Assembly (NCBI GenBank): GCA_964355085.1
Contig: CAYHBW010000004.1
Coordinates: forward strand, 1 to 47,337
Direction of reading: 5' to 3'
Length of the DNA: 47,337 bases
From: an uncultured Candidatus Saccharibacteria bacterium
GTDB lineage: Bacteria; Patescibacteriota; Minisyncoccia; UBA6257; 02-FULL-45-10c
Shown here: piece after piece, positions 5,968 to 44,036 of the stretch
Position numbering within the stretch: the stretch's first letter is position 1
Layout: each line of letters begins with the position of its first letter
Translations under genes and position numbers: made by a program
The notes under the pieces: generated by a model
The model's input: only the letters and a program-made list of their open reading frames with translations
Told to the model about the DNA's origin: nothing
Databases searched by the model: none

Positions 5968-6096
5968 TCATTATTATATGCTATTGTATAAAACAATCGA
6001 GGATCACGAGATCCCGGTGCGTACATTAACAGCGAGCTCCGGTAGTTTTCGGAGGGAGCTGAAACCGCTGACAAGTGGAAAAGGAGGGTGATCCAA

Positions 6097-6657: not shown

Positions 6658-6661
6658 CGGG

Positions 6662-6742
6662 TCCGCCAGCTGGCGGATTGGTCCCTTAGCCCGCCGAAGG
6701 CGGGTAAACACAACGCCCCGACTTCGGTCGGGGCGTTTTCTT
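6662..6742 (+). terminator. array of three GC-rich hairpins, the last a rho-independent terminator
   Basis: TCCGCCAGCTGGCGGA (6662-6677), CCCGCC-GAA-GGCGGG (6690-6704), ACGCCCCGAC-TTCG-GTCGGGGCGT (6713-6736) followed by a T-tract. Confidence 0.65.
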
Positions 6743-6806
6743 TTTTATAAAATTATTTATGATAAATTTAAAAAATTAATCGGTTAAATTATGTTATAAT
6801 CTGAAT

Positions 6807-7409
6807 ATGGCAATGAAATTGAGCAGGCGCGATCAGCTTAAATATAAAATCTGCATTTCCGGCGCTGCGGATACCGGTCATTGCGCTGTTGATGCTCCGG
6901 AAAAAGCGGAAGAATTGGGAAGAGAAATCGCCCGCCGGGGAATGGTTCTGGTAACCGGCGCGACAATTGGTATCCCGTATTGGGCCGCCAAAGGCGCGAA
7001 AGAAGAAGGCGGAATGGTGATTGGTCTTTCTCCGGCTGCTTCCGAAGCCGCTCACATAAAAACATACAAACTTCCGACTGACTATCATGATGTGATCGTT
7101 TATACGGGATTTGAATATTCCGGTAGAAATCTGCTTCTCACCCGATCGGCTGATGCGATCATCAATATCTGCGGAAGAATGGGAACTTTGAATGAATTCA
7201 CAATCGCTTTTGAAGACGGAAAACCTATCGGAGTTCTCGAGGGGACAGGCGGAACGGCCGACGAACTGAAGGGCATAGTCTCCAGGATGCACCGCGGTCC
7301 GGGAAGGGTTGTTTATTCCAAGGACATCAAGGAATTGCTGGATAAAATCGTTTTGGAGATTGAAAAGGATAAAAAGAATCATAACGGAAACAGATATGTG
7401 AAGGGCTAG
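6807..7409 (+). CDS. TIGR00725 / SLOG (LOG-like) Rossmann family protein
   Basis: ICISGAA...GMVLVTGATIGIPYWAAKGA...GGMVIGLSP...GRMGTLNEF pattern. Extended -10 TGTTATAAT ends 6 nt before the ATG. Confidence 0.7.
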   Translation: MAMKLSRRDQLKYKICISGAADTGHCAVDAPEKAEELGREIARRGMVLVTGATIGIPYWAAKGAKEEGGMVIGLSPAASEAAHIKTYKLPTDYHDVIVYTGFEYSGRNLLLTRSADAIINICGRMGTLNEFTIAFEDGKPIGVLEGTGGTADELKGIVSRMHRGPGRVVYSKDIKELLDKIVLEIEKDKKNHNGNRYVKG

Positions 7410-7445
7410 ATTAAAGGTGAAAGTCTATGAAGTCAAAAGTCGCAG

Positions 7446-7507
7446 ATGTCATTCTGAACGCAGTGAAGAATCTAATGAGATCCTTCGATCATACCTCAGG
7501 ATGACAT
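7446..7507. repeat. long imperfect palindrome (hairpin) in intergenic spacer
   Basis: ATGTCATTCTGA (7446-7457) pairs with TCAGGATGACAT (7496-7507). Inner stem GAAGAATCT (7465-7473) / AGATCCTTC (7478-7486), loop AATG. Confidence 0.6.
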
Positions 7508-21493: not shown

Positions 21494-21838
21494 CTATTTG
21501 ACCCTCTCCAGAACTTTCAGAAAGACAGCGGATTCGTTGCGGGCGAGATCGGCGAGGATTTTCCTGTCCAGTTTCACATTCGCAACTTTGAGCTTATTGA
21601 TGAACTGGCTATAGGTCATTCCGTTCGCTCTGGTAGCTGCATTGATGCGGACATTCCAGAGGGTGCGGTAATCGCGCTTTTTCTGTTTGCGTCCTGCAAA
21701 AGCGTGAGTCCAGGCGTGAAGAAGCGCTTCTTTTGCGGCGCGTTCCTTTGATTTGCGTCCCCAGCGGAATCCTTTGGTGTGCTTAAGGAGTTCGCGGCGC
21801 TTTTTTGTTGCAATTTTACCTCTTTTTACTCTGGACAT
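21494..21838 (-). CDS. rplT: 50S ribosomal protein L20
   Basis: MSRVKRGKIATKKRRELLKHTKGFRWGRK... is a canonical L20 N-terminus. Confidence 0.95.
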   Translation of the reverse strand: MSRVKRGKIATKKRRELLKHTKGFRWGRKSKERAAKEALLHAWTHAFAGRKQKKRDYRTLWNVRINAATRANGMTYSQFINKLKVANVKLDRKILADLARNESAVFLKVLERVK

Positions 21839-21841
21839 ATT

Positions 21842-22015
21842 TTATAGATATTTTTTGAATACTTTTACATCAGCAGTCCCCAAGGCCAACCCTTTGCGCT
21901 TATTGCGGGTCTGTTTGCCGGTGCGCTTTGCGCGAAAATGATCCTGCGCCATCCGTCGACGCATCATTTTCCCGGTCCTGGTGACTCGGAATCTCTTTTT
22001 GAAACTTTTTCTCAT
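21842..22015 (-). CDS. rpmI: 50S ribosomal protein L35 (57 aa, below the ORF-track cutoff)
   Basis: Hand translation: MRKSFKKRFRVTRTGKMMRRRMAQDHFRAKRTGKQTRNKRKGLALGTADVKVFKKYL. The stop lies 3 nt before the rplT start, in the classic infC-rpmI-rplT order. Confidence 0.9.
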   Translation of the reverse strand: MRKSFKKRFRVTRTGKMMRRRMAQDHFRAKRTGKQTRNKRKGLALGTADVKVFKKYL

Positions 22016-22160
22016 ACCAGTTAGTGAATCTGCGGTGCTTATCCGCAGAATCTGACTTGTTTGTTAATTATGTATATTGTTTTTTACTTACTATCTCTTT
22101 AAATGCCGGTCAGCAGAGCGGATAAGGTCAGATTCTAACCGCAGATCTACTACCTAGCAT
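22016..22160 (-). promoter_or_regulatory. structured 5' leader of rpmI-rplT, copy A of a two-copy element
   Basis: The reverse complement aligns end to end with 28958-29099. Helices 22021-22035/22139-22153 and 22047-22056/22127-22136. It ends at the rpmI ATG. Confidence 0.7.
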
Positions 22161-22179
22161 GGATTTATCGTATTGGGAT

Positions 22180-22208
22180 ATATTACACCGTCTTCAGGAA
22201 TTTTACAA
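22180..22208 (-). promoter_or_regulatory. promoter TTGTAA-17-TAATAT for the rpmI leader
   Basis: On the minus strand, TTGTAA is at 22208-22203 and TAATAT at 22185-22180, with a 17-nt spacer. It lies directly after the infC stop. Confidence 0.5.
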
Positions 22209-22211
22209 GGT

Positions 22212-22715
22212 CTATTTCTTGACTATCTTCATATTGAAACCGCGTCCTCCGAACTTTGCTTCAGCTATGACTTTATGCTCCGGATCGATCATTGTCTTGA
22301 CGAATTCCAGAAGTTTCTGCCTGCCCCAGTCTTTATTGGCTTTTTCGCGTCCGCGCATGGCAAGCATGATTTCCACCATGTGCCCCTCTTTCAGGAATTC
22401 ATTGGCTTTTTTGGCTTTTATTTGGAGATCGTGTTCAGCCGCTCTTCCGCTGATGCGCACCTGTTTGAGTTCCTGGGTTTTTTCGCTGGCGCGCTGTTTT
22501 TTCATTTTTTTCTCTTCCTGGTATCGGTATTTGTCATAGCTCATTATTTTACCAACCGGCGGCTTGGCCAGCGGGGCAACTTCAATCAGATCCAATCCTT
22601 TTTCATTAGCTAGCTTCAATGCGTCGGACAAAGACATTACGCCGACATATTCTCCGGCTTCATCGATGATGCGGAGTTCCGGCGCGCTTATTTGGTGGTT
22701 TATCTTATTTATCAT
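22212..22715 (-). CDS. infC: translation initiation factor IF-3
   Basis: 167 aa. INHQISAPELRIIDEAGE..GVMSLSDALKLANEKGLDLIEV and a C-terminal domain. ATG start. Confidence 0.95.
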   Translation of the reverse strand: MINKINHQISAPELRIIDEAGEYVGVMSLSDALKLANEKGLDLIEVAPLAKPPVGKIMSYDKYRYQEEKKMKKQRASEKTQELKQVRISGRAAEHDLQIKAKKANEFLKEGHMVEIMLAMRGREKANKDWGRQKLLEFVKTMIDPEHKVIAEAKFGGRGFNMKIVKK

Positions 22716-22787
22716 AATGTAGTATGAATTTTAGCAAATTAAATCGGATTTGAATAGGGAGGCCGTTGACATGTTATTATTGGATTA

Positions 22788-23414
22788 ATGGATGATATGA
22801 AAATAATTTATGTCGCCGGACTACATGGTAATGAGCGGGCTCCGGTTGAAGCGCTTCGAGAAGGTGGAGTTGATTTCATATTGGGAAATCCTTTGGCGTT
22901 TGAAAAAAATGCCAGATATACAGAATGCGATCTCAATGCTTCTTTCAGATTGGCGGGTAAAAAATATGAAGAGGTGAGGGCGGCGGAGATTCTGGATGAC
23001 ATCCCCGAAGATAATTTTGTTGTTGATTTTCATACTACGACCTCCGGGTCGACGCCTTTTGCGATTATTACAGATAAGGGCATGATTCCTCTTGCTGAAA
23101 GAGCCGGGCTTGGCATAGTAGTTCTGATGACTCATAACATTAAAGACGGACATGCGCTTATAAATCTTCGGAATGGAATATCAGTTGAAGCCGGTCAACA
23201 CGGCACCAAGGAAAGTAAGGAGATGACTTTGCGGGTGGTTGAAAATATAAAATCCGGAGAAAAATTTCCTGTAAAAATATACGAAGTGTACGATCGTATA
23301 ACCGAACCTGGAGAGTATATAAATTTTGAGATGCATCCGGGCGGATTCATACCGGTTCTTTCCGGAGAAAATGCTTATGATTTCTATGGACTCAAAGCGC
23401 GGGAAATGAAATAA
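22788..23414 (+). CDS. succinylglutamate desuccinylase/aspartoacylase (AstE/AspA) family zinc hydrolase
   Basis: IYVAGLHGNERAP motif near the N-terminus. About 205 aa. Confidence 0.6.
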   Translation: MDDMKIIYVAGLHGNERAPVEALREGGVDFILGNPLAFEKNARYTECDLNASFRLAGKKYEEVRAAEILDDIPEDNFVVDFHTTTSGSTPFAIITDKGMIPLAERAGLGIVVLMTHNIKDGHALINLRNGISVEAGQHGTKESKEMTLRVVENIKSGEKFPVKIYEVYDRITEPGEYINFEMHPGGFIPVLSGENAYDFYGLKAREMK

Positions 23415-23421
23415 TTCATAT

Positions 23422-23805
23422 ATGAACACGACTGATCAATATCAAAAAGAAGCCGAGACGAGATGGGGAAATACCGAGGCCTACCGGCAATCAACGGAAC
23501 GGGTCAAAAAAATGACCAAGGAAGATTTTGCACGCATCGGGAAAGAAGGGGACGATCTTATGCGCGAGATTGCATCAAGTATGGATAAAGGCGCGGAAAG
23601 TCCGGAAATTCAAAAGCTAATCGGCCGGCATTACGATAATCTTCGGAATTTTTATGATCCGAATCTTGAAATGTATCGCGGTCTTGCGGATATGTATGTC
23701 GCCGACAACCGCTTCACCGCTTATTTTGAAAAGTATCGAAAAGGACTTGCGGAATTCATGCGCGATGCGATGCATGTTTATTGCGACAATGGAGGATTCA
23801 AATAA
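23422..23805 (+). CDS. TipAS antibiotic-recognition domain protein (stand-alone)
   Basis: YQKEAETRWGNTEAY..S......K.....I..EG......I...M......PE.Q.LI..H pattern of TipAS. No MerR N-terminal domain. Confidence 0.7.
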   Translation: MNTTDQYQKEAETRWGNTEAYRQSTERVKKMTKEDFARIGKEGDDLMREIASSMDKGAESPEIQKLIGRHYDNLRNFYDPNLEMYRGLADMYVADNRFTAYFEKYRKGLAEFMRDAMHVYCDNGGFK

Positions 23806-23808
23806 AAA

Positions 23809-23833
23809 CTCCCCCTTGCGGGGAGCTTTTATT
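23809..23833 (+). terminator. rho-independent terminator
   Basis: CTCCCC-CTTGC-GGGGAG followed by CTTTTATTT. Confidence 0.65.
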
Positions 23834-23841
23834 TAATCTAG

Positions 23842-24215
23842 TGGAGATGGTGGGAGTTGAACCCACATCCGAAAATGTATCTGCCTCAAATCTACGCGCG
23901 TAGCTTGGTCTTGGTTTGTGAAAATGAGCTATAGATCAAGCAAAACGCATCATTTCCATTGTCAGTGAATTTCTCCGCAGTTAGTAGACTTCTGCTACGG
24001 AAGAGTCTGATTAATTACACCGAAGTTCGGCCTACCAGACATGAGCCGTTCGATGGTCCCGCGGCATATAGCGGCGGAACAAGCCAGTTATGCGAAAGCA
24101 AAATCTGGCATTCTGTTGGATAAGTTTGCACTTATTCAGTTTCCCAGTTTAACAAGTTATGGAAGCTTGGCGCGCATTGAAACAGAAAAAATTCCCGTCA
24201 AAGCCCGGCATCCCC
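23842..24215 (-). ncRNA. ssrA: tmRNA (SsrA)
   Basis: 5' GGGGATGCCGGGCTTTGACGGGA..., 3' GGGTTCAACTCCCACCATCTCCA tRNA-like end. Candidate tag ORF from GCA at 24129 to TAA at 24090-24088. Adjacent to smpB. Confidence 0.88.
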
Positions 24216-24262
24216 TTGGTTTAGAATCTAGAATTCAGTATCTAGTATCTAAAATATGAAAT

Positions 24263-24706
24263 TTAATATTTCAATGTTCTGCGAACTTCCCTATCGGTTT
24301 CGCGGCGCTTGATTGTTTCGCGCTTATCCCGCGCTTTCTTGTGGCGGGCGAGTCCGATAGCAAGTTTCATTCTTCGGCCCTTATCATATATCGATAGAGG
24401 CACGATGGTCAATCCTCCTTCTTTGGCTTTGTTCAATAGGTAATTTATCTCCTTTTTATTGAGAAGAAGCCGGCGCGTGCGATCGGGTTTGTATCCGGGG
24501 TCAGTATTATTCGGCTGGTATGGAGGAATCTGGGCATTGAGAAGCTGGGCGCCGTCCGGCTTCACCAATACGAAAGATCCGGTCAGCTGCGCCCCGCCTT
24601 TGCGGACGGATTTTACCTCCTGGCCGGTCAAAGAAATTCCGGCCTCGAAGGTTTCCAATATTTCATAATCAAATCTCGCTTTGCGATTTTCCGACAGTTG
24701 TTTCAT
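24263..24706 (-). CDS. smpB: SsrA-binding protein SmpB
   Basis: 147 aa. NRKARFDYEILETFEAGI.L.G.EVKS.R and a basic C-terminal tail. Confidence 0.95.
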   Translation of the reverse strand: MKQLSENRKARFDYEILETFEAGISLTGQEVKSVRKGGAQLTGSFVLVKPDGAQLLNAQIPPYQPNNTDPGYKPDRTRRLLLNKKEINYLLNKAKEGGLTIVPLSIYDKGRRMKLAIGLARHKKARDKRETIKRRETDREVRRTLKY

Positions 24707-24783
24707 GTCTACATTATATAGGATATCTTGACGCTGACGAATTTTATCAATATATTATTCGTAGTTCATCGGAGGAGCATAAT

Positions 24784-25275
24784 ATGGAAATCTGGCATAA
24801 AGGCAGTCTCGATGATCCCAGTGTTCTCGAGCAGGAGATCGCCCTGAAAGAATATCTTGGTGTTCTGATTCCGGTTTGTTCCGCGGAGACCAGTTCCGAC
24901 CCGGTTAATTGGACTCCGGAAAATCCGTTGCACGGGCATTGCGCCGTCGTGGCGGTTCTGGTGCAGGAAAATTTCGGCGGCGAAATACTGCGCGCTTCTC
25001 TTCTTGGCGTCAAAGGATATGAGCAGATGCAAAGCCATTATTGGAATCGATCGAAGAACGGATCCGAGGTCGATCTCACTGCCGGTCAATTCCGGGGTAA
25101 TGACCGCGATCTGGTGCCGGAAGGAAAAAATACAAAGAGGGACGGTCAAACCGGGGAAGAAGTTTTGATCACCAGAGAGAGTCTTCTGGCATATGAACCG
25201 ACCAGAAGGAGATACGAGCTCCTTAAGAAAAAGGTTAATGATGAATGGAGTCGGGTATATGAAGGACGCGATTGA
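24784..25275 (+). CDS. YunG-like hypothetical protein
   Basis: W.PENP..G.C.V.A...QE.FGGEI...........HYWN....G...DLT..QF pattern recalled from YunG family proteins. Confidence 0.45.
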   Translation: MEIWHKGSLDDPSVLEQEIALKEYLGVLIPVCSAETSSDPVNWTPENPLHGHCAVVAVLVQENFGGEILRASLLGVKGYEQMQSHYWNRSKNGSEVDLTAGQFRGNDRDLVPEGKNTKRDGQTGEEVLITRESLLAYEPTRRRYELLKKKVNDEWSRVYEGRD

Positions 25276-25297
25276 AGGGGCATGCGCCCCTTTTTTA
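25275..25297 (+). terminator. rho-independent terminator
   Basis: GGGGC-ATGC-GCCCC followed by TTTTTT. Confidence 0.7.
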
Positions 25298-25365
25298 TTT
25301 CATTGCTGTGTTTATTCGGTCAACTGATGCGGATAAGTCTGGTCATGTATAAAATAAAAAGCCGC

Positions 25366-25650
25366 TCAATGAGCGGCAGAACTGATAATCCTTATCCAAT
25401 ATGCATCGTATATTTCCACAACTACGGATTGTTTAGGCGACCATTTCATACATTCACCGCGGCCCATAGTTCCGGTATTTTTGAACCCGTAATTATCCGT
25501 GATGACCTCTATTCTGCAGTTTCCATCTCCTACTCTGCGCAGGACAGTTCCTGTATCTTTATAGATTTTATCCGGATCAAGCTTTGGAAGAGTTTTACAG
25601 GCAGATAAGCTGATTACGAAGGTAAGGAGCAGGGTTGTCTGAATATTCAT
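25366..25650 (-). CDS. small lipoprotein (hypothetical)
   Basis: 94 aa. Signal peptide with lipobox ISLSAC. Confidence 0.6.
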   Translation of the reverse strand: MNIQTTLLLTFVISLSACKTLPKLDPDKIYKDTGTVLRRVGDGNCRIEVITDNYGFKNTGTMGRGECMKWSPKQSVVVEIYDAYWIRIISSAAH

Positions 25651-25729
25651 TATTATTCCAAATCTTTAGCGCTGCTTATAAGTTACACCATTATTTAATT
25701 TTAAGTCAATTAGTGATAAAATCTTATTA

Positions 25730-27529
25730 ATGATCGCGGACATAAAAAAACTCATAAAACAGACCGCTTCGGCGGAAATAGACATTGAAGTCAGCGCTTC
25801 GGACAAGCCGGAGTTCGGTCATTATTCCACTAATGCGGCTTTTAAATTGGCGCCGATAGTCAGGAAATCTCCTCTTGAAATCGCTAAGGACTTAAGTCAA
25901 AAATTGGGCGAAGAAAAGATTTTTTCAAAAGTCGAAGCAGTTGCGCCCGGATTCATCAATTTTTGGATTTCATCGGCGGCTTTGCAAGGGAGTGTTGCAG
26001 AAATTTTAAAAGAAAATAAAAATTTCGGAAAGTTGAGCGGAGCGAAATCCGCCTCTGGCGGATTAAAAGTTAACCTAGAGTTCGTTTCCGCTAATCCGAC
26101 CGGGCCATTGACCATGGCTAACGGCCGAGGGGGATTTTACGGAACTGCGCTTGCGAATGTTCTGGAAAAAACCGGTCATAAAGTTACACGGGAATATTAC
26201 GTGAATGACGCCGGGAATCAGGTCCGGAAGTTGGCATTAAGTATATTGGCAGAAAAAGGATTCGTGCCTAAGTTTTCCGAGCATTATCAGGGTGGTTATA
26301 TTAAAGAATGGGCAATGTTAGTTAAATTATCAAAAGAATTAGAAAAAAAATTAAAGTTAAATTATAAATTAGGTAAGTCAGAATTTGAAAAAGGAGAAAA
26401 ATATCAAGATGAAAATGCAGAAATTGCACGTTTCTATAATTCGATAGTTAAGCCAATTTATAGAAATCATCTCAAGGATCTCGAATCTATCGGTAAAAAA
26501 ACTACACTGATTGCATTAAAAAGTATAAAAAAATCTCTTCAAAAAGCGGGGATCAGGCATGACAATTGGTTTTCCGAGGATGCGAATCTTCATAAAAAAG
26601 GAGAGCTAAAGAAAGCTTTAGAATTTTTAAAAAATCGAAAAGTAGTTGAAGAAAAAGACGGAGCAACGTGGCTAAAACACCATGAGGCGAAGCCTCAGGA
26701 GTTCGCCCGACCGAATTTACACGGCAAATTCAGTTTAGGGTTGGGCGAAGGGGTTCTTATAAAGTCTGACGGCTTGCCTACTTATTTTCTGGCCGATCTT
26801 GCTTATCACTACAACAAGCTGATAAAGCGGAAATTCGATCTCGCCATCGATATCTGGGGCGCGGATCATCATGGCTATGCGCAAAGGATGAAAAAAGGCG
26901 TGGAAGCGCTCGGATTGAATTCGGAAAGATTGAAAATTCTTATCACGCAGCTGGTCCGGTTGGTCAGCGGCGGGAAAGAAGTCCGCATGTCCAAGCGGAA
27001 AGGGGAATTCATCACCATGGACGATCTTTTGGAAGAAGTCGGGGCGGATGCGGCCAAGTTTTTCTTTTTGATGCATTCATTGGATACGCATATGGATTTT
27101 GATATGGATCTGGCGAAAGAGAAATCCAATAAGAATCCAGTATTCTATGCGCAATATGCGCTCGTAAGATGCAGTAACATCTTACGGAAGTCTAAAGCCC
27201 CGACCAAAGTCGGGGAGCCGACTCTGGTCGGCTTTAAAAATTTAAAATTAGAGTTTTTGACTTCCGAGTCGGAGGTCAGATTGATGCTAGAATTGATGAA
27301 ATTCCCTGATCTGATTACGCAGACAGCGGAAGATTATCAGGTCCATCATCTGACAAAATATGCCGGCGATGTCGCCCGGGCTTTGCACAATTTTTATGAA
27401 AAAGAGAGGGTTGTCGGGCTGGAAGATAAAAAACTTGAGCGGGCCCGATTGGCGCTGGTTTCCGCGACAAAGATTGTTTTGGAAAATCTGTTCGATATTT
27501 TAGGAATCTCAAAACCAAAGAAAATGTAA
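25730..27529 (+). CDS. argS: arginine--tRNA ligase
   Basis: 599 aa. SANPTGPLTMANGRG (HIGH region), HHGY, MSKRKG, C-terminal DALR anticodon-binding region ending in M. Confidence 0.95.
   Translation: MIADIKKLIKQTASAEIDIEVSASDKPEFGHYSTNAAFKLAPIVRKSPLEIAKDLSQKLGEEKIFSKVEAVAPGFINFWISSAALQGSVAEILKENKNFGKLSGAKSASGGLKVNLEFVSANPTGPLTMANGRGGFYGTALANVLEKTGHKVTREYYVNDAGNQVRKLALSILAEKGFVPKFSEHYQGGYIKEWAMLVKLSKELEKKLKLNYKLGKSEFEKGEKYQDENAEIARFYNSIVKPIYRNHLKDLESIGKKTTLIALKSIKKSLQKAGIRHDNWFSEDANLHKKGELKKALEFLKNRKVVEEKDGATWLKHHEAKPQEFARPNLHGKFSLGLGEGVLIKSDGLPTYFLADLAYHYNKLIKRKFDLAIDIWGADHHGYAQRMKKGVEALGLNSERLKILITQLVRLVSGGKEVRMSKRKGEFITMDDLLEEVGADAAKFFFLMHSLDTHMDFDMDLAKEKSNKNPVFYAQYALVRCSNILRKSKAPTKVGEPTLVGFKNLKLEFLTSESEVRLMLELMKFPDLITQTAEDYQVHHLTKYAGDVARALHNFYEKERVVGLEDKKLERARLALVSATKIVLENLFDILGISKPKKM
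27194..27234. repeat. 41-nt double-hairpin palindromic element inside argS (copy 1)
   Basis: CCCCGAC-CAAA-GTCGGGG (27198-27215) and AGCCGAC-TCTG-GTCGGCT (27216-27233). 36/41 identical to 31744-31784. Confidence 0.8.
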
Positions 27530-27551
27530 GATTCTTATCTTGTCAGAATTT

Positions 27552-27584
27552 TACCCGATTACGACGGGTATTGCTTTACTTTTT
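27552..27584 (+). terminator. probable terminator after argS
   Basis: TACCCG-ATTACGA-CGGGTA followed by a T-rich tract. Confidence 0.5.
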
Positions 27585-27622
27585 ATCTTCTATTTGTTTT
27601 AATCATTAGCGGTTCTTAGAAT

Positions 27623-28009
27623 ATGAATATAGGTAATGACATGGCCGACACGGTTCGCGGAGTTACGGCGGAAATTGAGAATTCCCTTATTTCAACGCAG
27701 GGCACTTCACAGCAGGAGACGCAGAGACGCTTAAGCGAAGCTGTTTCCGTCCTTCTGGGGTTTTGGTCTCACAGGAGAACTGTTTCCTGGATGCTTAAAA
27801 AGAATTCCGCATTGCGAAACGAAGCCCCGATAGACCTTGTCGCTTCTGCGTATGCCGCGAAAGATCTTATGAGTGCAATCAGGGCGATAAAACAAAAGCA
27901 TCTTGCGAGAAAAAATAGACTCGCAAGATTACGGCGCTTGCTTCGGACTCCGTCTGTCCTGGAGTATGGGGATTCGTGCGGCGTCGGTATTCCGGTCGAA
28001 CTGTTGTAA
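27623..28009 (+). CDS. hypothetical protein (weak resemblance to DUF2384 antitoxin-type domain)
   Basis: 128 aa. The segment W.LKKNSALRNEAPIDLV.S...A.DL...I..I is reminiscent of Xre/MbcA/ParS toxin-binding domains. Weak call. Confidence 0.4.
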   Translation: MNIGNDMADTVRGVTAEIENSLISTQGTSQQETQRRLSEAVSVLLGFWSHRRTVSWMLKKNSALRNEAPIDLVASAYAAKDLMSAIRAIKQKHLARKNRLARLRRLLRTPSVLEYGDSCGVGIPVELL

Positions 28010-28029
28010 CCGCCTGATGGCGGTTTTTT
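28009..28029 (+). terminator. rho-independent terminator
   Basis: ACCGCC-TGAT-GGCGGT followed by TTTTT. Confidence 0.7.
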
Positions 28030-28099
28030 AATTTTCAGATTTGAAAAAATAAAAATATCAGTGTATTCTTTTTGAAGAACTTATCAGCGCGGAGACTCA

Positions 28100-28519
28100 T
28101 TGGGGGATTTGAAAAAGATTTCCGTCGGATTGATTTTCACATACGTCGCCTACCTTCTGATCTGCCACTCTTCTTTTTATGCCGTCTGTGAAATATTGTA
28201 TGTCGATAAGGCATTTCATATCGCCGGCGGATATCTCATCGCCGCGCTTGCATATCGTCTTTCCGGATCAAGTAATCCATTGATATTATTCAGCGCCGTT
28301 ATTGCAATGGGCGTCGCTTGGGAATTTTTGGAGGTTTTCTTTCTGAATCCTTGGACTTTCCCCGCTCTTTCCGAAATCGGGCGGGCATTCGTCTCTTACG
28401 GGGATATCGCAGCGGATGTAGCCGGTTTTTTTCTGTATATGATATCGGGTAGAGAAAAGATTAATCATGCGCCTGCTTATATTCCCGGCGCACCTGATGA
28501 CCGCAATCGCCTTATTTAA
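28100..28519 (+). CDS. hypothetical membrane protein
   Basis: 139 aa, four hydrophobic helices. TTG start in the track, so the start is uncertain. Confidence 0.45.
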   Translation: MGDLKKISVGLIFTYVAYLLICHSSFYAVCEILYVDKAFHIAGGYLIAALAYRLSGSSNPLILFSAVIAMGVAWEFLEVFFLNPWTFPALSEIGRAFVSYGDIAADVAGFFLYMISGREKINHAPAYIPGAPDDRNRLI

Positions 28520-28610
28520 GGCGATTTTTGTTTATTTTTCACTCTTGCATTGTCGTATCTTGGGGTGATATATTCTCTGTAGTCATTTGCTAAATCAATT
28601 CGAGGTTGCC

Positions 28611-28907
28611 ATGTTGCTGATTCCACGTGATACGGCGCGTAGAGATCATTATGTGAAACACAAAGTGCGTTTTTCAAGATTACAGATTTACATAGCCCAT
28701 AGATTGGCGAGAAGCGGTTTAAGGGAGATATTGAAGGAACGAAAACCAAAAGGGATCGCCGCTCTTTGTAAGGAAATCAGGCTATTATCGCATTATATTC
28801 ATTTATTGAAAAAATCCGAAGGATATTACAAATATCTACGCTCAATACACAAGCATTCCGATTACGAAAGACATTTGAAGGAAAGAACTAATCGCCGCTC
28901 CCGATGA
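28611..28907 (+). CDS. hypothetical basic protein
   Basis: ATG at 28611 (track start TTG 28587). Arg/Lys/His-rich. The terminator hairpin overlaps its 3' end. Confidence 0.4.
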   Translation: MLLIPRDTARRDHYVKHKVRFSRLQIYIAHRLARSGLREILKERKPKGIAALCKEIRLLSHYIHLLKKSEGYYKYLRSIHKHSDYERHLKERTNRRSR

Positions 28908-28917
28908 GCGGTTTTTT
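28895..28917 (+). terminator. rho-independent terminator
   Basis: CCGCTC-CCGAT-GAGCGG followed by TTTTTT. Confidence 0.65.
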
Positions 28918-28919
28918 GT

Positions 28920-28948
28920 TTGAAAATGAACGATTTTTCGCTTAATAT
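28920..28948 (+). promoter_or_regulatory. promoter TTGAAA-17-TAATAT for the ileS leader
   Basis: TTGAAA 28920-28925, 17-nt spacer, TAATAT 28943-28948. Confidence 0.5.
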
Positions 28949-28957
28949 ATAAGAATA

Positions 28958-29099
28958 TGCCAGGTAGTAGATCTGCGGCTAGAATCTCATTTATCCGCGT
29001 TTACTATATGGAATTTAAGTAAAATAGTAATTGTAATTATAAATAGATAATCAATAAATTGAGATTCTGCGGATAAACACCGCAGGCTCACTACATGGT
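28958..29099 (+). promoter_or_regulatory. structured 5' leader of ileS, copy B of a two-copy element
   Basis: Aligns with the reverse complement of 22016-22160. Helices 28964-28978/29080-29094 and 28981-28989/29060-29068. Alternative hairpin 29067-29072/29080-29085. Ends at ATG 29100. Confidence 0.7.
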
Positions 29100-32000
29100 A
29101 TGCTTAGAGGCCTTAAGGAATTCAAATTGCCGGAAATAGAGGAGAGAGTGCTCAAATTCTGGAAAGAAAACAGGATTTTTGAGAAGTCTTTGAAGCTTCG
29201 CGAGAATGCGAAGCCCTTCCGATTTTTTGAAGGTCCGCCGACTGCTAACGGCCGTCCCGGAATTCACCATGTTCTTGGTCGGGCATTTAAAGATGTCATT
29301 CCGCGCTATAAGACAATGCAGGGATATTTGGTCAATCGAAAAGCCGGCTGGGATACTCATGGTTTGCCGGTGGAAATTGAAGTTGAAAAAGAACTCGGCC
29401 TGAAAAATAAACAGGAAATCGAGAAATTCGGAATCGCGGAATTCAATGAAAAAGCCAAATCTTCCGTCTGGAGATATCAGGAAGAATGGGAAAAGCTGAC
29501 TGACCGTATCGGATTCTGGTTGGATATGAAAAATCCGTATGTCACCTATAAGCCGGATTACGTGGAAAGTCTTTGGTGGGTTTTGAAGCAGATTGCAGAC
29601 AGGGATCTTCTCGCTCAGTCATTTAAGATTGTTCCTTATTGCCCTCGCTGTCAGACTCCGCTTTCCAGTCATGAAATGGGACAGCCGGGAGTTTATAAAA
29701 AAGTTAAAGATCCATCCGTATACGTAAAGTTCACCCTTCGACAAGCTAAGGGTAAAAAAAATAAAGCAAAAGAATACCTCTTGGTCTGGACCACCACTCC
29801 GTGGACTTTGCCGTCCAATGTGGCTGTCGCAGTCAATCCGGAATTAAGCTATACGAAATATAAAGTCGGAAAAGATTTTGTCTGGTCATATAATCCTCCG
29901 CCTTCGCCAGAGGCTACGGCGGACAAGTCCTCCGAAAATATTGAGGTGGTGGAAAAGATTTCCGGGAAGAAAATGATCGGTTGGGAATATGAGCCGATGT
30001 TCAAGGTAAAAGGCCCGTGGCTGAAAAACAAGAAGTTTTTTAAAGTTTACGGCGCCGGTTTTGTATCCACTACGGACGGAACAGGATTGGTTCATATTGC
30101 TCCGGCTTTTGGCGAGGATGATATGCAGCTTATTAAAAAAGAGCAGAAAGAATTGGTCGGACAGATCCCAATCACTATTGATGCGCGTGGCATAGTTCAG
30201 GCAGGACTGCCGGGCGCAGGGAGATTTGCCAAGCAGGCGGATAAAGATATCATCGCTCATCTTTTGGATAAAAAAATACTGCTTAAATATGAAGAAATAG
30301 AGCACGATTATCCGTTTTGTTGGAGATGCGGAACGCCTATTTTATACTTCTCCCGCTTTTCCTGGTTCATAGAAATGAGCGGGCTTCGCGACCAGCTTCT
30401 GAAAAATAATGAAAAGATAAATTGGGTTCCGGATCACATTAAAGAGGGGAGATTCGGTGAGTGGCTTCGTGAAATAAAAGATTGGGCGATTTCTCGTGAT
30501 CGCTATTGGGGAACGCCGCTACCGATTTGGCGATGTGGGGATTGTGAGGCGACTAAGGTCGTCGGAAGCTTAAAAGAATTGGACGATAGCCGTTTTTCGG
30601 AAAATAATTTTTATTTTCTCCGTCATGGAGAGTCAGATCATAATTTGACTGATATTATAGCAGCCGGGCCGGAGCGCGGAAAAAATATTTCCAAGCTGAC
30701 CAAGAAAGGCCTTGCGCAAGCGGAAGAAGCCGGAAAAAATATAAAGAAAATGCTCGGGAAAAATAAACTCGATTTCATTTTCGCTTCGCCTTATCAGCGT
30801 ACAAAGCAGACGGCAAAGGCGGTCGCTAAGCAGACGAAAGCGAAATTGATTTTTGATAAAAGGTTGGTTGAAATCGATGCGGGAATTTTTAATTGGAGAG
30901 TGGTCGGAGAGTTCCATAAATTTTTTGAGAATTCTTTGGAGCGCTTCACTAAATCTCCGGCTGGTGGAGAAAATCTGAATGATGTTAAAAAAAGGATGTT
31001 CGGCGCAATTCTGGATATCAATTCCAAATATTCCGGTAAAAATATTCTCATTGTCAGCCATGGCGATCCACTTTGGGTTTTGGAAGGAGCAATGAAGGGA
31101 TTGGATAACGAAGAAATTTTGAATTTGGATTACATTAAAACTGACGGCAAGCCGCGGAAAGTTGAGTTGCATAATTGGCCGTATAATATGAATTGTGAGC
31201 TCGATATTCATCGCCCGTATGTCGATGATCTGCATCTTAAGTGCGGGAAGTGTGATGGCAAAATGACCCGCGTGAAGGAGGTCGCCGATTCTTGGTTTGA
31301 TTCCGGAGCAATGCCGTTTGCGCAATTTCATTATCCATTCGCGCAAGATCTGAAAAATCCTTTGGATATGAATTCGATTGAAAAAACGATTGAATTTCCG
31401 GCTGATTACATCAGCGAGGGAATTGATCAGACCAGGGGATGGTTTTATACTCTTCTAGCCGTGGCCACTGCTTTGGGCTTGGAAAATCCTTACAAAAACG
31501 TGATTACGCTTGGATTAGTTTTAGATAAAAACGGCCAAAAGATGTCCAAGTCAAAGGGAAACGTGGTCAGTCCGTGGGATATGATTCAGAAATACGGCTC
31601 TGATGTTGTCCGCTGGTATTACTACACCATCAATCCGCCGTCTGAATCCAAAAAATTTGACGAGCTGGATCTCGGCAAGATGCTCCGAAAGTTCATAATG
31701 ATAATTTATAACTCTTTCGTTTTTCTGGAGACTTATGGGGATAAAAGCCCCGACCATAGTCGGGGAGTCGACTTGGGTCGACTTCAGAATGTTTTAGATA
31801 GATGGATCTCAGCTAGATTGAATCAGACAATCGAGCAGGCGACGGAAGGATTGGAAAAATACGATGTCGGTTCCGCCGGAAAGGCGCTGGAATCTTTTGC
31901 AGACGATCTTTCCCGATGGTATATCCGCCGTTCCCGTCCGCGCCTGCAGAAGCCGGATGATATGAAGGATTATGCGTCCGCCTCCGCCACTTTGCGGTTC

Positions 32001-32642
32001 TGCCTTTCTGAATTGAGCCGGATGATGGCCCCGTTCACGCCTTTTTTTGCCGATGCTCTTTATCTTTCAGTTTCCGCCGTCAAGGAATCCGTCCATCTTG
32101 AGGATTGGCCGGAAGCGGACAAGAAAGCGGTTGATTTTTCTTTACTCGAAAAAATGGAAGAAGTCCGAAGATTATCCAGCTTGGCTCTGGCGATCCGCGC
32201 TGAAAAAGGAATGAAGGTCAGGCAACCGCTTCAGGCGTTGGAAATAAAATCCAAGGCAATTGATGTTCGCGATGAAGAGCTTTTGGCGATTCTTCGCGAT
32301 GAAGTGAATGTAAAGGAAGTCCGATGGAATTATGAAATGAAAGAAGAATTGGCTTTTGATCTTGTAATAACGCCTGAACTCAAAGAAGAGGGTATTCTCC
32401 GGGAAGTTGTTCGCATGGTTCAAGGACTTCGCCATGATGCAGGTTATGTTCCTTCAGATGCCATCGAGCTTAGGATTGAGGGCCCTAAAGAGCTGGAAAA
32501 CGCCTTAAATGCGCATATGGCGCGTCTTAAGCGGGATGTGGGGGCGAAGTCGGTTGAGCTCAAAAAGAGCGATAAATATGACGCTGAATTGAGCACTAAA
32601 TTTGAAGACCAGCCGCTTTGGGTCGGGGTAAGAAAAATCTGA
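29100..32642 (+). CDS. ileS: isoleucine--tRNA ligase carrying an inserted histidine phosphatase domain
   Basis: 1180 aa. PTANGRPGIHH (HIGH), WTTTPWTLP editing domain, WAISRDRYWGTPLPIW, KMSKSKGN, C-terminal anticodon-binding region. Confidence 0.95.
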   Translation: MLRGLKEFKLPEIEERVLKFWKENRIFEKSLKLRENAKPFRFFEGPPTANGRPGIHHVLGRAFKDVIPRYKTMQGYLVNRKAGWDTHGLPVEIEVEKELGLKNKQEIEKFGIAEFNEKAKSSVWRYQEEWEKLTDRIGFWLDMKNPYVTYKPDYVESLWWVLKQIADRDLLAQSFKIVPYCPRCQTPLSSHEMGQPGVYKKVKDPSVYVKFTLRQAKGKKNKAKEYLLVWTTTPWTLPSNVAVAVNPELSYTKYKVGKDFVWSYNPPPSPEATADKSSENIEVVEKISGKKMIGWEYEPMFKVKGPWLKNKKFFKVYGAGFVSTTDGTGLVHIAPAFGEDDMQLIKKEQKELVGQIPITIDARGIVQAGLPGAGRFAKQADKDIIAHLLDKKILLKYEEIEHDYPFCWRCGTPILYFSRFSWFIEMSGLRDQLLKNNEKINWVPDHIKEGRFGEWLREIKDWAISRDRYWGTPLPIWRCGDCEATKVVGSLKELDDSRFSENNFYFLRHGESDHNLTDIIAAGPERGKNISKLTKKGLAQAEEAGKNIKKMLGKNKLDFIFASPYQRTKQTAKAVAKQTKAKLIFDKRLVEIDAGIFNWRVVGEFHKFFENSLERFTKSPAGGENLNDVKKRMFGAILDINSKYSGKNILIVSHGDPLWVLEGAMKGLDNEEILNLDYIKTDGKPRKVELHNWPYNMNCELDIHRPYVDDLHLKCGKCDGKMTRVKEVADSWFDSGAMPFAQFHYPFAQDLKNPLDMNSIEKTIEFPADYISEGIDQTRGWFYTLLAVATALGLENPYKNVITLGLVLDKNGQKMSKSKGNVVSPWDMIQKYGSDVVRWYYYTINPPSESKKFDELDLGKMLRKFIMIIYNSFVFLETYGDKSPDHSRGVDLGRLQNVLDRWISARLNQTIEQATEGLEKYDVGSAGKALESFADDLSRWYIRRSRPRLQKPDDMKDYASASATLRFCLSELSRMMAPFTPFFADALYLSVSAVKESVHLEDWPEADKKAVDFSLLEKMEEVRRLSSLALAIRAEKGMKVRQPLQALEIKSKAIDVRDEELLAILRDEVNVKEVRWNYEMKEELAFDLVITPELKEEGILREVVRMVQGLRHDAGYVPSDAIELRIEGPKELENALNAHMARLKRDVGAKSVELKKSDKYDAELSTKFEDQPLWVGVRKI
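30585..31200 (+). other. histidine phosphatase (PGAM-like) domain inserted in the IleRS catalytic core
   Basis: FYFLRHGESDHN (RHG), SPYQRTKQTA, EIDAGIF, IVSHGDPLW. It sits between ...VVGSLKELD and DIHRPYVDD, which are only about 13 aa apart in the Thermus IleRS sequence as I recall it. Confidence 0.75.
31744..31784. repeat. 41-nt double-hairpin palindromic element inside ileS (copy 2)
   Basis: CCCCGAC-CATA-GTCGGGG (31748-31765) and AGTCGAC-TTGG-GTCGACT (31766-31783). Confidence 0.8.
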
Positions 32643-33748: not shown

Positions 33749-35527
33749 CTACAGCTCTATCAGCACCGGAAGAACCATTGGTCTTCGCTTAGTCTTATTA
33801 TACAAGAGTTGGCCGATCTGGTCTCTGATGAGTCCCTTCACGTAGTCCGGTTCCGGCTGGTTGTTGCGCGGGATTTTTCCGAGGACATTTTTCAGTTTCA
33901 GGCGTATATCATCAAGCATCTGCTTATTTTCTTTGAGATAGATGAATCCGCGGGAAATGATGTCCGGAGTTTTCAGCATCCGGCCAGTCCGGCGGTCCAA
34001 AGTGGCGATGATGACAATCATGCCTTCTTCAGCAAGAAGCAGGCGGTCGCGCAAAACAACTTCCTGGACATCTCCGACTCCAAGTCCGTCAACCATGACG
34101 TAGTCAGTCGGGATTCTTTCTTCGGTTACTGTGAAGGATTCTGCGGTAAGGTTCGCAACCTGGCCGTTATCCATAAGAATCGCATTTTCTTTCGGCATTC
34201 CGATTTCCTGCGCGACTTTTGCAGCCGCCGATCTCTTGAAGTAATAACCGTGAATCGGAACCACATATTTCGGTTTGACTAATTTCAAGACAACACGGAG
34301 GTCGTCTTTAAGGCAGTGTCCGCTGGAGTGGATATCCAAAAGTTTGGAGTTGTAGACTTCATCAACTTGACGGGCGATATTATCCTGAAGCGCCTGAACG
34401 CTGCGTTCATTTCCAGGAACAACGGAAGAGGAGAAGATGACTGTGTCAGATCTTTTCAGACGGAGAACTTTGTGTTCGCCGTTGGTGATTTTAGTCAGTC
34501 CGGCATTTGGCTCACCTTGTCCTCCGGTGGAAAGAATCATTATCTTGTCATCTTTGTGTCGGCTGACTTCTTCAACTGCGATGACATTTTCTTTCTTGAA
34601 TTTCATATACCCGAGATTTTTTGCAATCTCGACGTTGTCTTTCATGGAGCGGCCGTTGATGGCGACTTTTTTCCCGAGTTTTTCCGCGATCTTGATGATT
34701 TCCGCAAGACGGGTCAACAGGGAAGAAAAAGTTGCGACGATGATGCGTCCTTTGGCGTTCTTGAAGAGCATTTCCAGATTTTTTTCCACGATTTTTTCCG
34801 GAACAGATTGTCCTTCGATGTCGGCGTTCGTGCTGTCCAGGAGAAGGGTGTGGATTCCGGCTTTCCCGAGTTTTTCGAATATTTCCAGCCCTTCCGGATT
34901 TCCTTCTATATCGCGTTCAACGCGGAAGTCTCCGAAAGTAGCCATTTTTCCGACCGGAGTTTCCAGGATGAATCCGATGGAATCCGGAATGGTGTGGTCG
35001 ATGGAGAAGAAATCTCCGGTGAAGTGCGTTGATATCCTCAAGCGGTCACCGTCATTGACGACGATGATTTTCGGCTTCGGGACATTCGGAAATTCCTGGA
35101 ATCTTTTTTCAACCAGCGCTTTGGTGAGGGCGGCGGTATAGATGACAGGATTGCCGAGCTTTTCAATCAGGTACGGAAGGGCGTGGATGTGATCGTAGTG
35201 GCCGTGGGTCAAAACAATCGCCTTTACGTTTTTCTTTTTCGGCTCGATGTAGCTGATGTTCGGAATTATGTAGTCGACTCCCGGAGTTTCCTCTTCGGGG
35301 AATTGGATGCCGACATCGATGACGACGATTTCATCCTTGTATTCGAAGAACGAGCAGTTTTGCCCGATCTGTTCCATTCCTCCGACAGGAACGAACCGCA
35401 GCGGAACCAGACCGGATTTTTCCGGTTGTTCCGTATGCGTTTTTTGCTCCCTGTGATGGGTGGCAGTTTCTTTATGTTCTTTTTTATGTGGCGCGAAAGT
35501 TCTTTTCGGCGCGCTAACTCTAATCAT
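33749..35527 (-). CDS. rnj: ribonuclease J
   Basis: Metallo-beta-lactamase HGHYDH, beta-CASP and a C-terminal domain. I placed the start at ATG 35527 because the longer track ORF (to 35704) runs through tRNA-Leu. Confidence 0.88.
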   Translation of the reverse strand: MIRVSAPKRTFAPHKKEHKETATHHREQKTHTEQPEKSGLVPLRFVPVGGMEQIGQNCSFFEYKDEIVVIDVGIQFPEEETPGVDYIIPNISYIEPKKKNVKAIVLTHGHYDHIHALPYLIEKLGNPVIYTAALTKALVEKRFQEFPNVPKPKIIVVNDGDRLRISTHFTGDFFSIDHTIPDSIGFILETPVGKMATFGDFRVERDIEGNPEGLEIFEKLGKAGIHTLLLDSTNADIEGQSVPEKIVEKNLEMLFKNAKGRIIVATFSSLLTRLAEIIKIAEKLGKKVAINGRSMKDNVEIAKNLGYMKFKKENVIAVEEVSRHKDDKIMILSTGGQGEPNAGLTKITNGEHKVLRLKRSDTVIFSSSVVPGNERSVQALQDNIARQVDEVYNSKLLDIHSSGHCLKDDLRVVLKLVKPKYVVPIHGYYFKRSAAAKVAQEIGMPKENAILMDNGQVANLTAESFTVTEERIPTDYVMVDGLGVGDVQEVVLRDRLLLAEEGMIVIIATLDRRTGRMLKTPDIISRGFIYLKENKQMLDDIRLKLKNVLGKIPRNNQPEPDYVKGLIRDQIGQLLYNKTKRRPMVLPVLIEL

Positions 35528-35598
35528 ATTTGTTTTGTTATTTTTAATTATTAATTTTTTTATTTTATTTTTTTTCCTATTAATTTGCCCCGTATTCC

Positions 35599-35617
35599 AT
35601 ACAAAGTGCCGAAGTGA
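35599..35617. repeat. left arm of a 19-bp inverted repeat flanking tRNA-Leu
   Basis: ATACAAAGTGCCGAAGTGA. The reverse complement of 35839-35857 is ATACAAAGTGCCGCAGTGA (18/19). Confidence 0.7.
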
Positions 35618-35627
35618 GGACTTTCTG

Positions 35628-35710
35628 TGCCCCCGAGAGGATTTGAACCTCCACGACCTTGCGGTCACACGCACCTGAAGCGTGCGCGTCTGCCGTTTCG
35701 CCACAGGGGC
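35628..35710 (-). tRNA. tRNA-Leu (anticodon CAG), long variable arm
   Basis: Acceptor GCCCCTG/CGGGGGC, anticodon stem CACGC/GCGTG with loop TTCAGGT, 16-nt variable arm, T-arm GGAGG-TTCAAAT-CCTCT. Confidence 0.9.
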
Positions 35711-42515: not shown

Positions 42516-44036
42516 ATGCTGACAAATCCATTTGTGTGGGTAGCTTTGATTTTAGGTATCGCAGCGGGGTATTTTCTCCGACAGTCGATAGTATCTAAGC
42601 AGGCGGACTCGGTAGAACAAAAAATAAAAATCTGGATGGACGAAGCGCAATCCAAGTCAAAGGAGGTGATTTTGGATGCGAAAGAGCGAGCTGCGAAATT
42701 ATTGGAGGAGGTCAAGGGAGAAGAGAGGACCCGGAAGGTCCAATTGGACAAGCTGGAAGAGAGGATAATGAAAAAAGAGGAGACTCTGGAAAAGCAGTAT
42801 GCCGACATGACTTCCCAGAAAATGAATCTCGAGGAAGAAGCAAAGCGGGTCAATACGACTCGCGCGGAAATGGACGCGTTGAAGTCGAAGATTCTCGGAG
42901 AGTTGGAAAAAGTCGCGAATCTCTCGGTTGATGACGCGAAAAAGCAGGTTTTGAAAAAAGTGACCGAAGAGCACCGCGTAGAATTGGCGGTGGCTTTGAA
43001 TAAATTGGAAACCGAGCGTCGGGAGGAAATCGAGAAAAAGAGCATGGGTATCATAACCACAGCCATCCAGCGTTATGCCCGTTCCCATGTTTCTGATGTC
43101 ACCACTAGCTCATTCCAGCTTCCGAGCGAGGATATGAAAGGGAAGATCATCGGCCGCGAAGGACGCAACATTAAGACGCTTGAAAGAATGACCGGAGTAG
43201 AAATCATCGTTGACGAAACTCCGGACACGATAATTTTCTCTTCTTATGATCCGCTCCGCCGGGAAGTGGCGCGCATGACCATGGAAAAGTTGCTTAAGGA
43301 CGGACGCATCCAACCGGCGAAGATCGAAGAAAAAGTCGCCGAATCCCAGGGTGAACTCAACCGCAGAATGGTGGAAATCGGCGAGAACGCCGCGCTTGAA
43401 GTCGGCGTTGTCGGCCTGCCTAAGGAAATCATCCAGCTCTTGGGCAGATTGTATTTCCGCACTAGCTTTGGACAGAATGTGCTCGTGCATTCGATTGAAA
43501 TGGCGCATATTTCCGCGATGATCGCCGCCGAACTTGGTGTGAATATCGAAGTCGCCAAGAAAGGCGCGCTTTTACACGATATCGGAAAAGCGATCGACCA
43601 TGAAGTTCAGGGAACGCACGTCGAGCTCGGACGGAAAATCCTGCAGAAATACGGAATTGATGAGGAAGTCGTCAAGGCCATGCAATCGCACCATGATGAA
43701 TATCCATATTCCAATCCGGAATCCTATATCGTCACGACTGCGGATATTTTGTCCGCCGCCCGTCCGGGAGCCCGTAGGGGAACAGTTGAAAACTACATCA
43801 AGCGCTTGGAAGATTTGGAAAAGATTGCCACAAGCTTTGATGGCGTGAAGAGCGCGTATGCTTTGTCCGCAGGCCGTGAAATCCGCGTGTTCGTCATTCC
43901 GGAGAAAGTTGACGACTTCGGCGCTTTGCAGATGGCTCGTAACATTGCCAATAAGATTCAGACTGATATGAAATATCCGGGTGAAATAAAAGTGAATGTC
44001 ATCAGGGAGATGCGCGCAGTGGAAGTTGCTCGCTAA
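42516..44036 (+). CDS. rny: ribonuclease Y
   Basis: 506 aa. N-terminal TM helix, coiled coil, KH domain (GKIIGREGRNIK), HD domain (LLHDIGK). Confidence 0.93.
   Translation: MLTNPFVWVALILGIAAGYFLRQSIVSKQADSVEQKIKIWMDEAQSKSKEVILDAKERAAKLLEEVKGEERTRKVQLDKLEERIMKKEETLEKQYADMTSQKMNLEEEAKRVNTTRAEMDALKSKILGELEKVANLSVDDAKKQVLKKVTEEHRVELAVALNKLETERREEIEKKSMGIITTAIQRYARSHVSDVTTSSFQLPSEDMKGKIIGREGRNIKTLERMTGVEIIVDETPDTIIFSSYDPLRREVARMTMEKLLKDGRIQPAKIEEKVAESQGELNRRMVEIGENAALEVGVVGLPKEIIQLLGRLYFRTSFGQNVLVHSIEMAHISAMIAAELGVNIEVAKKGALLHDIGKAIDHEVQGTHVELGRKILQKYGIDEEVVKAMQSHHDEYPYSNPESYIVTTADILSAARPGARRGTVENYIKRLEDLEKIATSFDGVKSAYALSAGREIRVFVIPEKVDDFGALQMARNIANKIQTDMKYPGEIKVNVIREMRAVEVAR

Follow-up and report, generated by a model that had tools for sequence, protein, structure and literature searches.

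Directly ahead of their start codons, two genes of contig CAYHBW010000004.1 (the 47,337 nucleotides analysed here, hereafter the window) carry copies of one element of about 145 nt: ileS, encoding isoleucyl-tRNA synthetase (IleRS), and rpmI, the first gene of the rpmI-rplT ribosomal protein operon. What is such an element doing in front of both? The original prediction took it for a cis-regulatory RNA through which a common signal gates the synthetase gene and the ribosomal protein operon. Our analysis leads to another answer: the element is not a dedicated regulator of ileS and rpmI but a mobile, hairpin-forming repeat. We favor, with a probability of roughly 65%, a reading in which it belongs to a family of mobile repeats, similar to miniature inverted-repeat transposable elements (MITEs), that targets start codons and hands translation on to the host gene.

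Alignment and a covariance model built from six copies placed the two window copies where they had been predicted, in sense orientation and each ending at a start codon:

28957..29099 (+): element copy 1, 143 nt, between the ileS promoter and the ileS start codon; 149 bits with the covariance model
22016..22160 (-): element copy 2, 145 nt, between infC and rpmI; 149 bits with the covariance model

The two match over their whole length (28957-29099 on the plus strand, 22160-22016 on the minus strand), as proposed, except that the ileS copy begins one base earlier than first thought, at the ATG at 28957. The covariance-model spans, 28957-29102 (+) and 22013-22160 (-), run from the element's own 5' ATG (28957-28959 in copy 1, 22160-22158 in copy 2) through the ATG of the gene, with copy 1 abutting the ileS start codon (29100) and copy 2 that of rpmI (22015-22013). 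The conserved 5' block AGGTAGTAGATCTGCGG and 3' block AGATTCTGCGGATAANCACCGCAG were both recovered and occur in the window only at these two sites, with 0.00-0.01 occurrences expected by chance; a third match to the 5' block, with 3 mismatches, is the opposite arm of the rpmI copy. Overall identity between the ileS and rpmI copies is only 74%. In the rpmI copy the centre is no random sequence and resembles the centres of copies in other genomes. The model found no further copy in the window.

Both insertion and start-codon specificity are well supported. The ileS site is empty in three relatives (L001, L003 and L004; IleRS 82-89% identical), where the -10 box is followed by 7 nt and then the ATG; in L003, for example, the site reads TTGAAA-17-TAAAAT-ATATTCAT-ATG-TTGAAAGGCCTTAAGGAATTC. 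The window has the same promoter and coding sequence, plus 143 bases with an ATG on both sides. The rpmI site is empty in three lineages with IF3 96%, 95% and 92% identical (no element in L026, L027, L028 and L033), and a diverged copy fills it in L029-L031. Empty rpmI sites read ...TACGATAAACAT-ATG-CAAAAAAGTTTC, and the window reads ...TACGATAAATCC-ATG-element-ATG-AGAAAAAGTTTC. A third site, ahead of ligA, is empty in L037 and filled in L034. The general pattern is promoter-ATG-element-ATG-gene at a filled site and promoter-ATG-gene in the relatives. The flanking 3-base direct repeat, ATG, could be a target duplication or could be carried by the element itself.

The flanks of rpmI differ with occupancy (window 22013-22015 compared to L026, L027 and L033): the 5' end of the gene carries ATG-AGA and a CGA codon in both filled lineages, and ATG-CAA and CGC in the three empty ones, the five lineages being otherwise about equally distant from one another. 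The filled rpmI allele may have spread along with short flanks.

The host genes and the signals around the two copies are as follows:

29100..32642 (+): ileS, host gene of copy 1, downstream of it
21494..22015 (-): rpmI (22015-21842) and rplT (21838-21494), host genes of copy 2
28920..28948 (+): ileS host promoter, TTGAAA-17-TAATAT, also in element-less relatives
22167..22208 (-): rpmI host promoter region, TTGTAA at 22208-22203 and TAATAT at 22185-22180 (17 spacing), conserved in empty-site relatives
28894..28912 (+): intrinsic-terminator-like hairpin of the upstream gene

The predicted TTGnAA-17-TAATAT promoters are therefore present upstream of both copies, and at rpmI a second -10-like box, TACGAT at 22172-22167, lies 6 nt ahead of the element ATG. 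Since relatives that lack the element have these promoters too, they belong to the host and lie outside the element. The terminator-like hairpin at 28894..28912 indicates that ileS is a separate transcription unit. Transcripts of both ileS and rpmI very probably carry the element as their 5' leader. Exact look-ups of the ribosomal protein L35 and of the 106-aa protein encoded upstream of ileS returned no record.

Further copies were sought in collections of metagenomes and genomes, using an internal motif of the 3' part without the ATG, and protein-guided look-ups added others. The 3'-motif scans returned true copies in four other contigs and one metagenome-assembled genome. One of the six metagenome matches (L008) was due to chance; in the genome collection a first pattern (GTAGATCTGCGGNTAGAATCT) had no match, the other copies differing in that block, and a second gave 1 true match and 9 chance ones, which the model confirmed as non-members. 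Among viral contigs the 3' pattern had no match, and all 12 matches to the 5' pattern were chance occurrences inside phage genes. Run on about 450 kb of loci, the covariance model found no further copies and rejected every chance pattern match. About 10 copies are known, at 8 distinct insertion sites in a few groundwater Patescibacteria genomes of the Paceibacteria type; they are 143-147 bp long and have a sole open reading frame (ORF) of 10-21 codons. The downstream genes, other than ileS and rpmI (which is filled again in the second lineage), encode RecO, a CDP-alcohol phosphatidyltransferase, an AI-2E family transporter, LigA (the NAD-dependent DNA ligase), a class-V aminotransferase (cysteine desulfurase-like, L016) and a 119-aa membrane protein. 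Synteny between these element-bearing loci and the window was sought and none was found. Every copy starts with ATG, ends exactly at the start codon of the gene and lies in sense orientation (8/8 sites).

Three of these loci (ligA, recO and the phosphatidyltransferase gene; copies in L009, L010+L007 and L034) carry copies that are 99-100% identical, and such near-identity at non-homologous places points to recent spread within one genome. The assemblies themselves also betray a repeat, as assemblers break or mis-join at repeats: contigs L023, L025, L035 and L036 stop inside the element, and in L024 (676-823) the rpmI copy is fused with the 3' end of a different copy.

Could a simple preference for ATG account for the placement? 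There are 116 intergenic ATG/CAT triplets and 36 ATG start codons in the 47 kb of the window. With a rough null of random landing on ATG or CAT, and survival only where the landing is intergenic or at a start codon, the chance of hitting a start codon in sense is 0.237 per site and about 1e-5 for eight under this simple null. ATG preference alone therefore fails to explain the 8/8 pattern. A -10-like box stands 6-8 nt ahead of the element ATG in 7 of the 8 copies with a known 5' flank.

Structurally the element fits a MITE, though no autonomous partner turned up in the window or the ~450 kb of loci: it is shorter than ~300 bp and has no transposase ORF, it has terminal inverted repeats, a flanking repeat and empty sites, and it occupies multiple non-homologous loci. 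The original prediction had named copies scattered in either orientation at unrelated sites as the mark of a MITE-like mobile repeat. This is largely what we observed, except that the copies do not occur in either orientation and all sit in sense at start codons. In dimensions it resembles Correia/NEMIS elements and other MITEs (ERIC, RUP, bcr1), which are non-coding units of ~100-160 bp that end in inverted repeats of ~20-26 bp, are flanked by a short direct repeat, occur in many copies and show empty/filled polymorphism. Correia elements, however, duplicate TA and occupy varied intergenic positions in both orientations, whereas the present element is flanked by ATG and found at start codons in sense only; neither an IHF site nor promoter creation is known for it. 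The copies bear no resemblance to the 26-bp Correia inverted repeat, as read by eye with no Correia sequence aligned. REPINs are also hairpin repeats whose stems are kept by compensatory changes, but they are extragenic, usually downstream of genes, present in hundreds of copies and without a flanking repeat, and they are mobilised by RAYT transposases, no gene for which was seen here.

All of the pairings originally proposed for the RNA are present, namely the outer helix, the inner helix (P2), the local hairpin and the pairing of 28991-28998 with 29069-29076. In copy 1 they are laid out as follows:

28957..28978 (+): 5' terminal inverted repeat and 5' strand of the outer helix, ATGCCAGGTAGTAGATCTGCGG
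29080..29101 (+): 3' terminal inverted repeat and 3' strand of the outer helix, entering the first two bases of the ileS AUG
28981..28989 (+): 5' strand of inner helix P2, AGAATCTCA, with three covarying pairs across copies
29060..29068 (+): 3' strand of inner helix P2, TGAGATTCT
28991..28998 (+): segment 2, TTATCCGC, pairing with segment 3 (GCGGATAA, 29069-29076) or, via CCGC, with segment 1 (GCGG, 28975-28978)
29067..29085 (+): segments 3 and 4, local hairpin CTGCGG-ATAAACA-CCGCAG, the alternative to the long hairpin

The terminal inverted repeats are 22 bp long and imperfect (19/22 positions agree when ATGCCAGGTAGTAGATCTGCGG of L016 is set against the reverse complement of its 3' end), with the end sequences ATGCCAGGYAGYAGATCTGCGG. 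The outer helix that they form is 86% paired across 7 copies, and in it the first two bases of the element AUG pair with the first two of the gene AUG. The 9-bp inner helix P2, in which AGAAUCUGA pairs with UCAGAUUCU, is fully paired in every copy, both bases being replaced at 3 of its pairs. Its covariation score is 0.129 compared to 0.063 +/- 0.012 in shuffles, none of 500 shuffles scoring as high. The long hairpin, a near-continuous duplex of ~30 bp, is more stable than shuffled sequences (z = -2.9 and -5.1 for the window copies and -2.9 to -6.2 among copies).

Four segments (1, CUGCGG; 2, UUAUCCGC; 3, CUGCGGAUAA; 4, CCGCAG) can pair either as 1:4 with 2:3 or as 1:2 with 3:4. The predicted minimum-energy fold varies among copies because P2 competes with 2:3. 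That the pairings exclude one another, as first proposed, is supported by comparison among copies: in the diverged rpmI copy (L029) each segment carries one concerted change (GCGG to GCGA, CCGC to UCGC), each a G-to-A or C-to-U, and this four-way change preserves 1:4, 2:3, 1:2 and 3:4 alike. Candidate promoters inside the element (ATGCCA-17-TAGAAT in the ileS copy and TTAACA-17/18-GATAAR in four copies) were rejected, neither being conserved in all copies.

The ATG at the 5' end of the element also opens a small reading frame:

28957..29022 (+): mini-ORF of copy 1, MPGSRSAARISFIRVYYMEFK*, 21 codons, the usual stop at codon 11 being lost (TCA)
22128..22160 (-): mini-ORF of copy 2, MLGSRSAVRI*, 10 codons plus TGA

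A 10-codon mini-ORF (MPGSRSAARI and variants) starts from the 5' ATG in 7/8 copies, the exception being the ileS copy. It overlaps segment 1 and the 5' strand of P2, and its stop codon, which lies within that strand, is still TGA or TAA in three copies with a changed P2. No frame running through the element is open as far as the gene ATG.

How could essential genes be expressed behind such a hairpin? IleRS and IF3 place the window in the Patescibacteria, near Harrisonbacteria-like Paceibacteria from groundwater. A -10 hexamer lies 5-8 nt before the start of 16 of the 49 window ORFs, compared to 9% of control ATGs, and 8/49 have a motif like the Shine-Dalgarno sequence. Leaderless mRNAs appear, from these sequence counts, to be common in this host. 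The lack of a Shine-Dalgarno sequence ahead of ileS and rpmI, rightly pointed out in the original prediction, is then normal here, since leaderless genes are common and Shine-Dalgarno motifs rare.

We hypothesize a translation relay that builds on this host background. If, as appears for most of them, the host genes are leaderless and have their -10 box 6-8 nt ahead of the ATG, insertion would give them a structured leader. The RNA then made would start at the element AUG, and the host's initiation signal, whether from a leaderless 5' end or from coupling with the gene upstream, would now serve that AUG. A ribosome starting there would read the 10-codon mini-ORF and melt the outer helix, which would otherwise bury the real start codon, and the gene AUG would be exposed. 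Expression of the gene would stay proportional to the original signal, and the element could be tolerated before essential genes. As the mini-ORF stops after 10 codons, ~110 nt upstream of the gene, any coupling must go through RNA structure. In its fullest form, the element would be a transposable translational relay that homes to start codons and that brings its own AUG, mini-ORF and four-segment switch, with host translation tied to ribosome traffic at the 5' end; we regard this version as clearly less likely than not.

The closest analogue appears to be the mycobacterial interspersed repetitive unit (MIRU). MIRUs are likewise short and mobile, settle on start codons pointing the same way as the gene, and have an internal ORF proposed to pass translation on to it, which would make the insertion nearly harmless (PMC12548453; PMC3184786). 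The start-codon target and the orientation are shared by the present element at 8/8 sites. The MIRU ORF, however, spans the unit and overlaps the start of the gene by 4 nt, whereas none reaches the gene ATG here. MIRUs are also 40-100 bp long and often in tandem, compared to single units of 143-147 bp with a long hairpin in our case, and the host phylum differs, the window proteins matching Patescibacteria. No sequence similarity to MIRUs is known, no MIRU sequence having been compared. With ermC/cat-type translational attenuators and trp-type leaders the element shares a short ORF overlapping the first of four segments, for which 1:2 plus 3:4, or else 2:3, are the possible pairings. In both, the gene start region would be paired in the modelled resting fold and the position of the ribosome would choose the fold. 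Those leaders, however, are fixed, gene specific and vertically inherited, whereas this element is mobile and precedes unrelated genes. In this element it is the outermost helix, between the 5' and 3' ends, that buries the start codon, and not 3:4; no Shine-Dalgarno sequence is involved, and no stalling signal is known. By analogy, the element would work like leader-peptide attenuators without being a member of that group.

Several observations weigh against the reading of a start-codon-targeting repeat that hands translation on. The mismatches in the outer helix (16 G.U and 17 A.C) have no strand bias; what is conserved in the outer arms may therefore be the ends of the DNA and not a helix of the RNA. 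Template-switch "palindrome correction" can also give rise to covariation in a DNA palindrome, without selection. Conservation of the mini-ORF is inseparable from that of the helix in so small a sample; only about 10 copies are available, and the apparent conservation of the 3' arm is biased, as the search pattern partly fixed that arm. When the 5' part was masked in constraint folding as if ribosome-bound, accessibility of the start codon rose modestly and not in every copy. The ligA copy (L034) is internal to an operon, 3 nt past the stop codon of the upstream gene; a leaderless start is then not required, and the target would be the start codon itself and not the 5' end of a transcript. The filled rpmI site in two lineages fits a single old insertion as well as repeated insertion. 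Finally, the window and about 450 kb of loci yielded neither a transposase nor an autonomous partner sharing these ends.

The absence of strand bias in the outer helix and the weak gain in accessibility on masking both speak for a purely selfish MITE with no role in expression. Such an element would prefer ATG next to AT-rich promoter DNA, and the gene behind it would be expressed via a cut by RNase III or from a weak internal promoter (TTAACA-17/18-GATAAR). [quoted passage not shown] We nevertheless judge it rather unlikely, as target preference alone fails on the 8/8 sense start-codon sites given 116 intergenic ATG/CAT per 47 kb, conservation of the internal promoter's -35-like box does not extend to the ileS and L016 copies, and the four-way concerted change keeps both alternative folds.

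A domesticated module, in which a 5'-terminal hairpin shields leaderless mRNA from decay by RNase J or RNase Y or acts as a translation-dependent switch, is less probable again. The helix does begin at the first base of the predicted transcript, and a beta-CASP RNase, RNase J and RNase Y are all encoded in the window (4615-5967 (+), 33749-35704 (-) and 42516-44036 (+) are the RNA-decay nuclease genes). Between lineages, the copies at the rpmI site have arms that are 78-91% identical and a centre that is 60% identical, which suggests constraint in place if both rpmI copies are orthologous. That orthology is unproven, however; gene conversion among copies could keep the arms alike, and close relatives manage the same genes without the element.

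The dedicated cis-regulatory leader of the original prediction, co-regulating ileS and rpmI-rplT via a common signal such as tRNA charging or L20, is largely refuted and we consider it very unlikely. Parts of that proposal stand: a structured sense element does end at the start codon, and its alternative pairings have covariation support. It also has no known family behind it, since Rfam gave none for either copy when the whole window was searched at gathering scores and 21900-29300 at E up to 10. The T-box leader (RF00230) and the L20 leader (RF00558), whose niche in the structured 5' region of an aminoacyl-tRNA synthetase gene or of rpmI-rplT the element shares, were both rejected, with no covariance-model match at gathering score or at E up to 10, as the original prediction had supposed. 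The regulon is what fails. Both loci lack the element in their closest relatives, other copies precede RecO, LigA, a transporter, a lipid-synthesis enzyme and a desulfurase, copies at unrelated loci are near-identical, and the ends are terminal inverted repeats with a flanking ATG repeat. An inverton, with the inverted repeats serving as invertase sites that flip the centre and switch the gene on or off, is the least likely reading: 22-bp inverted repeats do surround a ~100-bp segment between promoter and gene, but all 10 copies, from several independent assemblies, have one orientation, the whole unit and not just its orientation varies between relatives, and no recombinase gene lies nearby in the window.

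If the fullest form of the relay is true, a mobile element would be spreading a ready-made post-transcriptional control module across essential genes of a Patescibacteria lineage with reduced genomes, by a mechanism that recognises start codons. The repeat is also a second independent case, after mycobacterial MIRUs, of repeats settling exactly on start codons. A literature search found no description of such mobile repeats in Patescibacteria. Mycobacteria use many leaderless mRNAs. With such transcripts apparently common in this host too, the means by which start codons are found, and by which genes lacking a Shine-Dalgarno sequence are expressed behind a 145-nt hairpin, become testable. The case also calls for caution in hunting riboswitches in metagenomes, where a transposed repeat can pass for a conserved regulatory leader of two genes. 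It matters for genome binning as well, as the element interrupts metagenome assemblies at essential genes.

Several side observations were made on the host genes and the loci compared. Residues 504-676 of the window IleRS (29100-32642 (+)) form a histidine-phosphatase domain (PF00300, E = 7e-31) inside the class I catalytic domain, and the same domain is listed in all of the best 120 Patescibacteria IleRS homologs. The window also encodes tmRNA (23839-24215 (-)) and smpB (24263-24706 (-)). Beside smpB in L001 (1511-5177) and L027 (1-3571), and not in the window, lies a stretch with a Prim-Pol/AAA_25 gene and a large serine recombinase, which looks like an integrated mobile element, the tmRNA gene not having been located there.

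The extra length of LigA homologs was considered as read-through of the element and this was rejected, as it consists of internal inserts. In P0251, P0263, P0274 and P0293 an in-frame insert of ~40 residues (...SPKPPQPRG...RRGLSESRAG.TKRVEE...) follows LENYLG, and this Patescibacteria LigA insert may be a different repeat that inserts in frame. The cysteine desulfurase-like protein of L016 has its aminotransferase domain interrupted by two to three in-frame repeat copies, the full unit VRNVQNVLTDKNKR.(A/V)SDR occurring twice along with a partial copy. The 5' arm of every element copy contains a conserved BglII site (AGATCT), and L027, a relative in which neither rpmI nor ileS has the element, carries at 5902-7473 the genes of a BglII-type restriction endonuclease (PF09195) and of an N6/N4 methyltransferase; this may be a coincidence.

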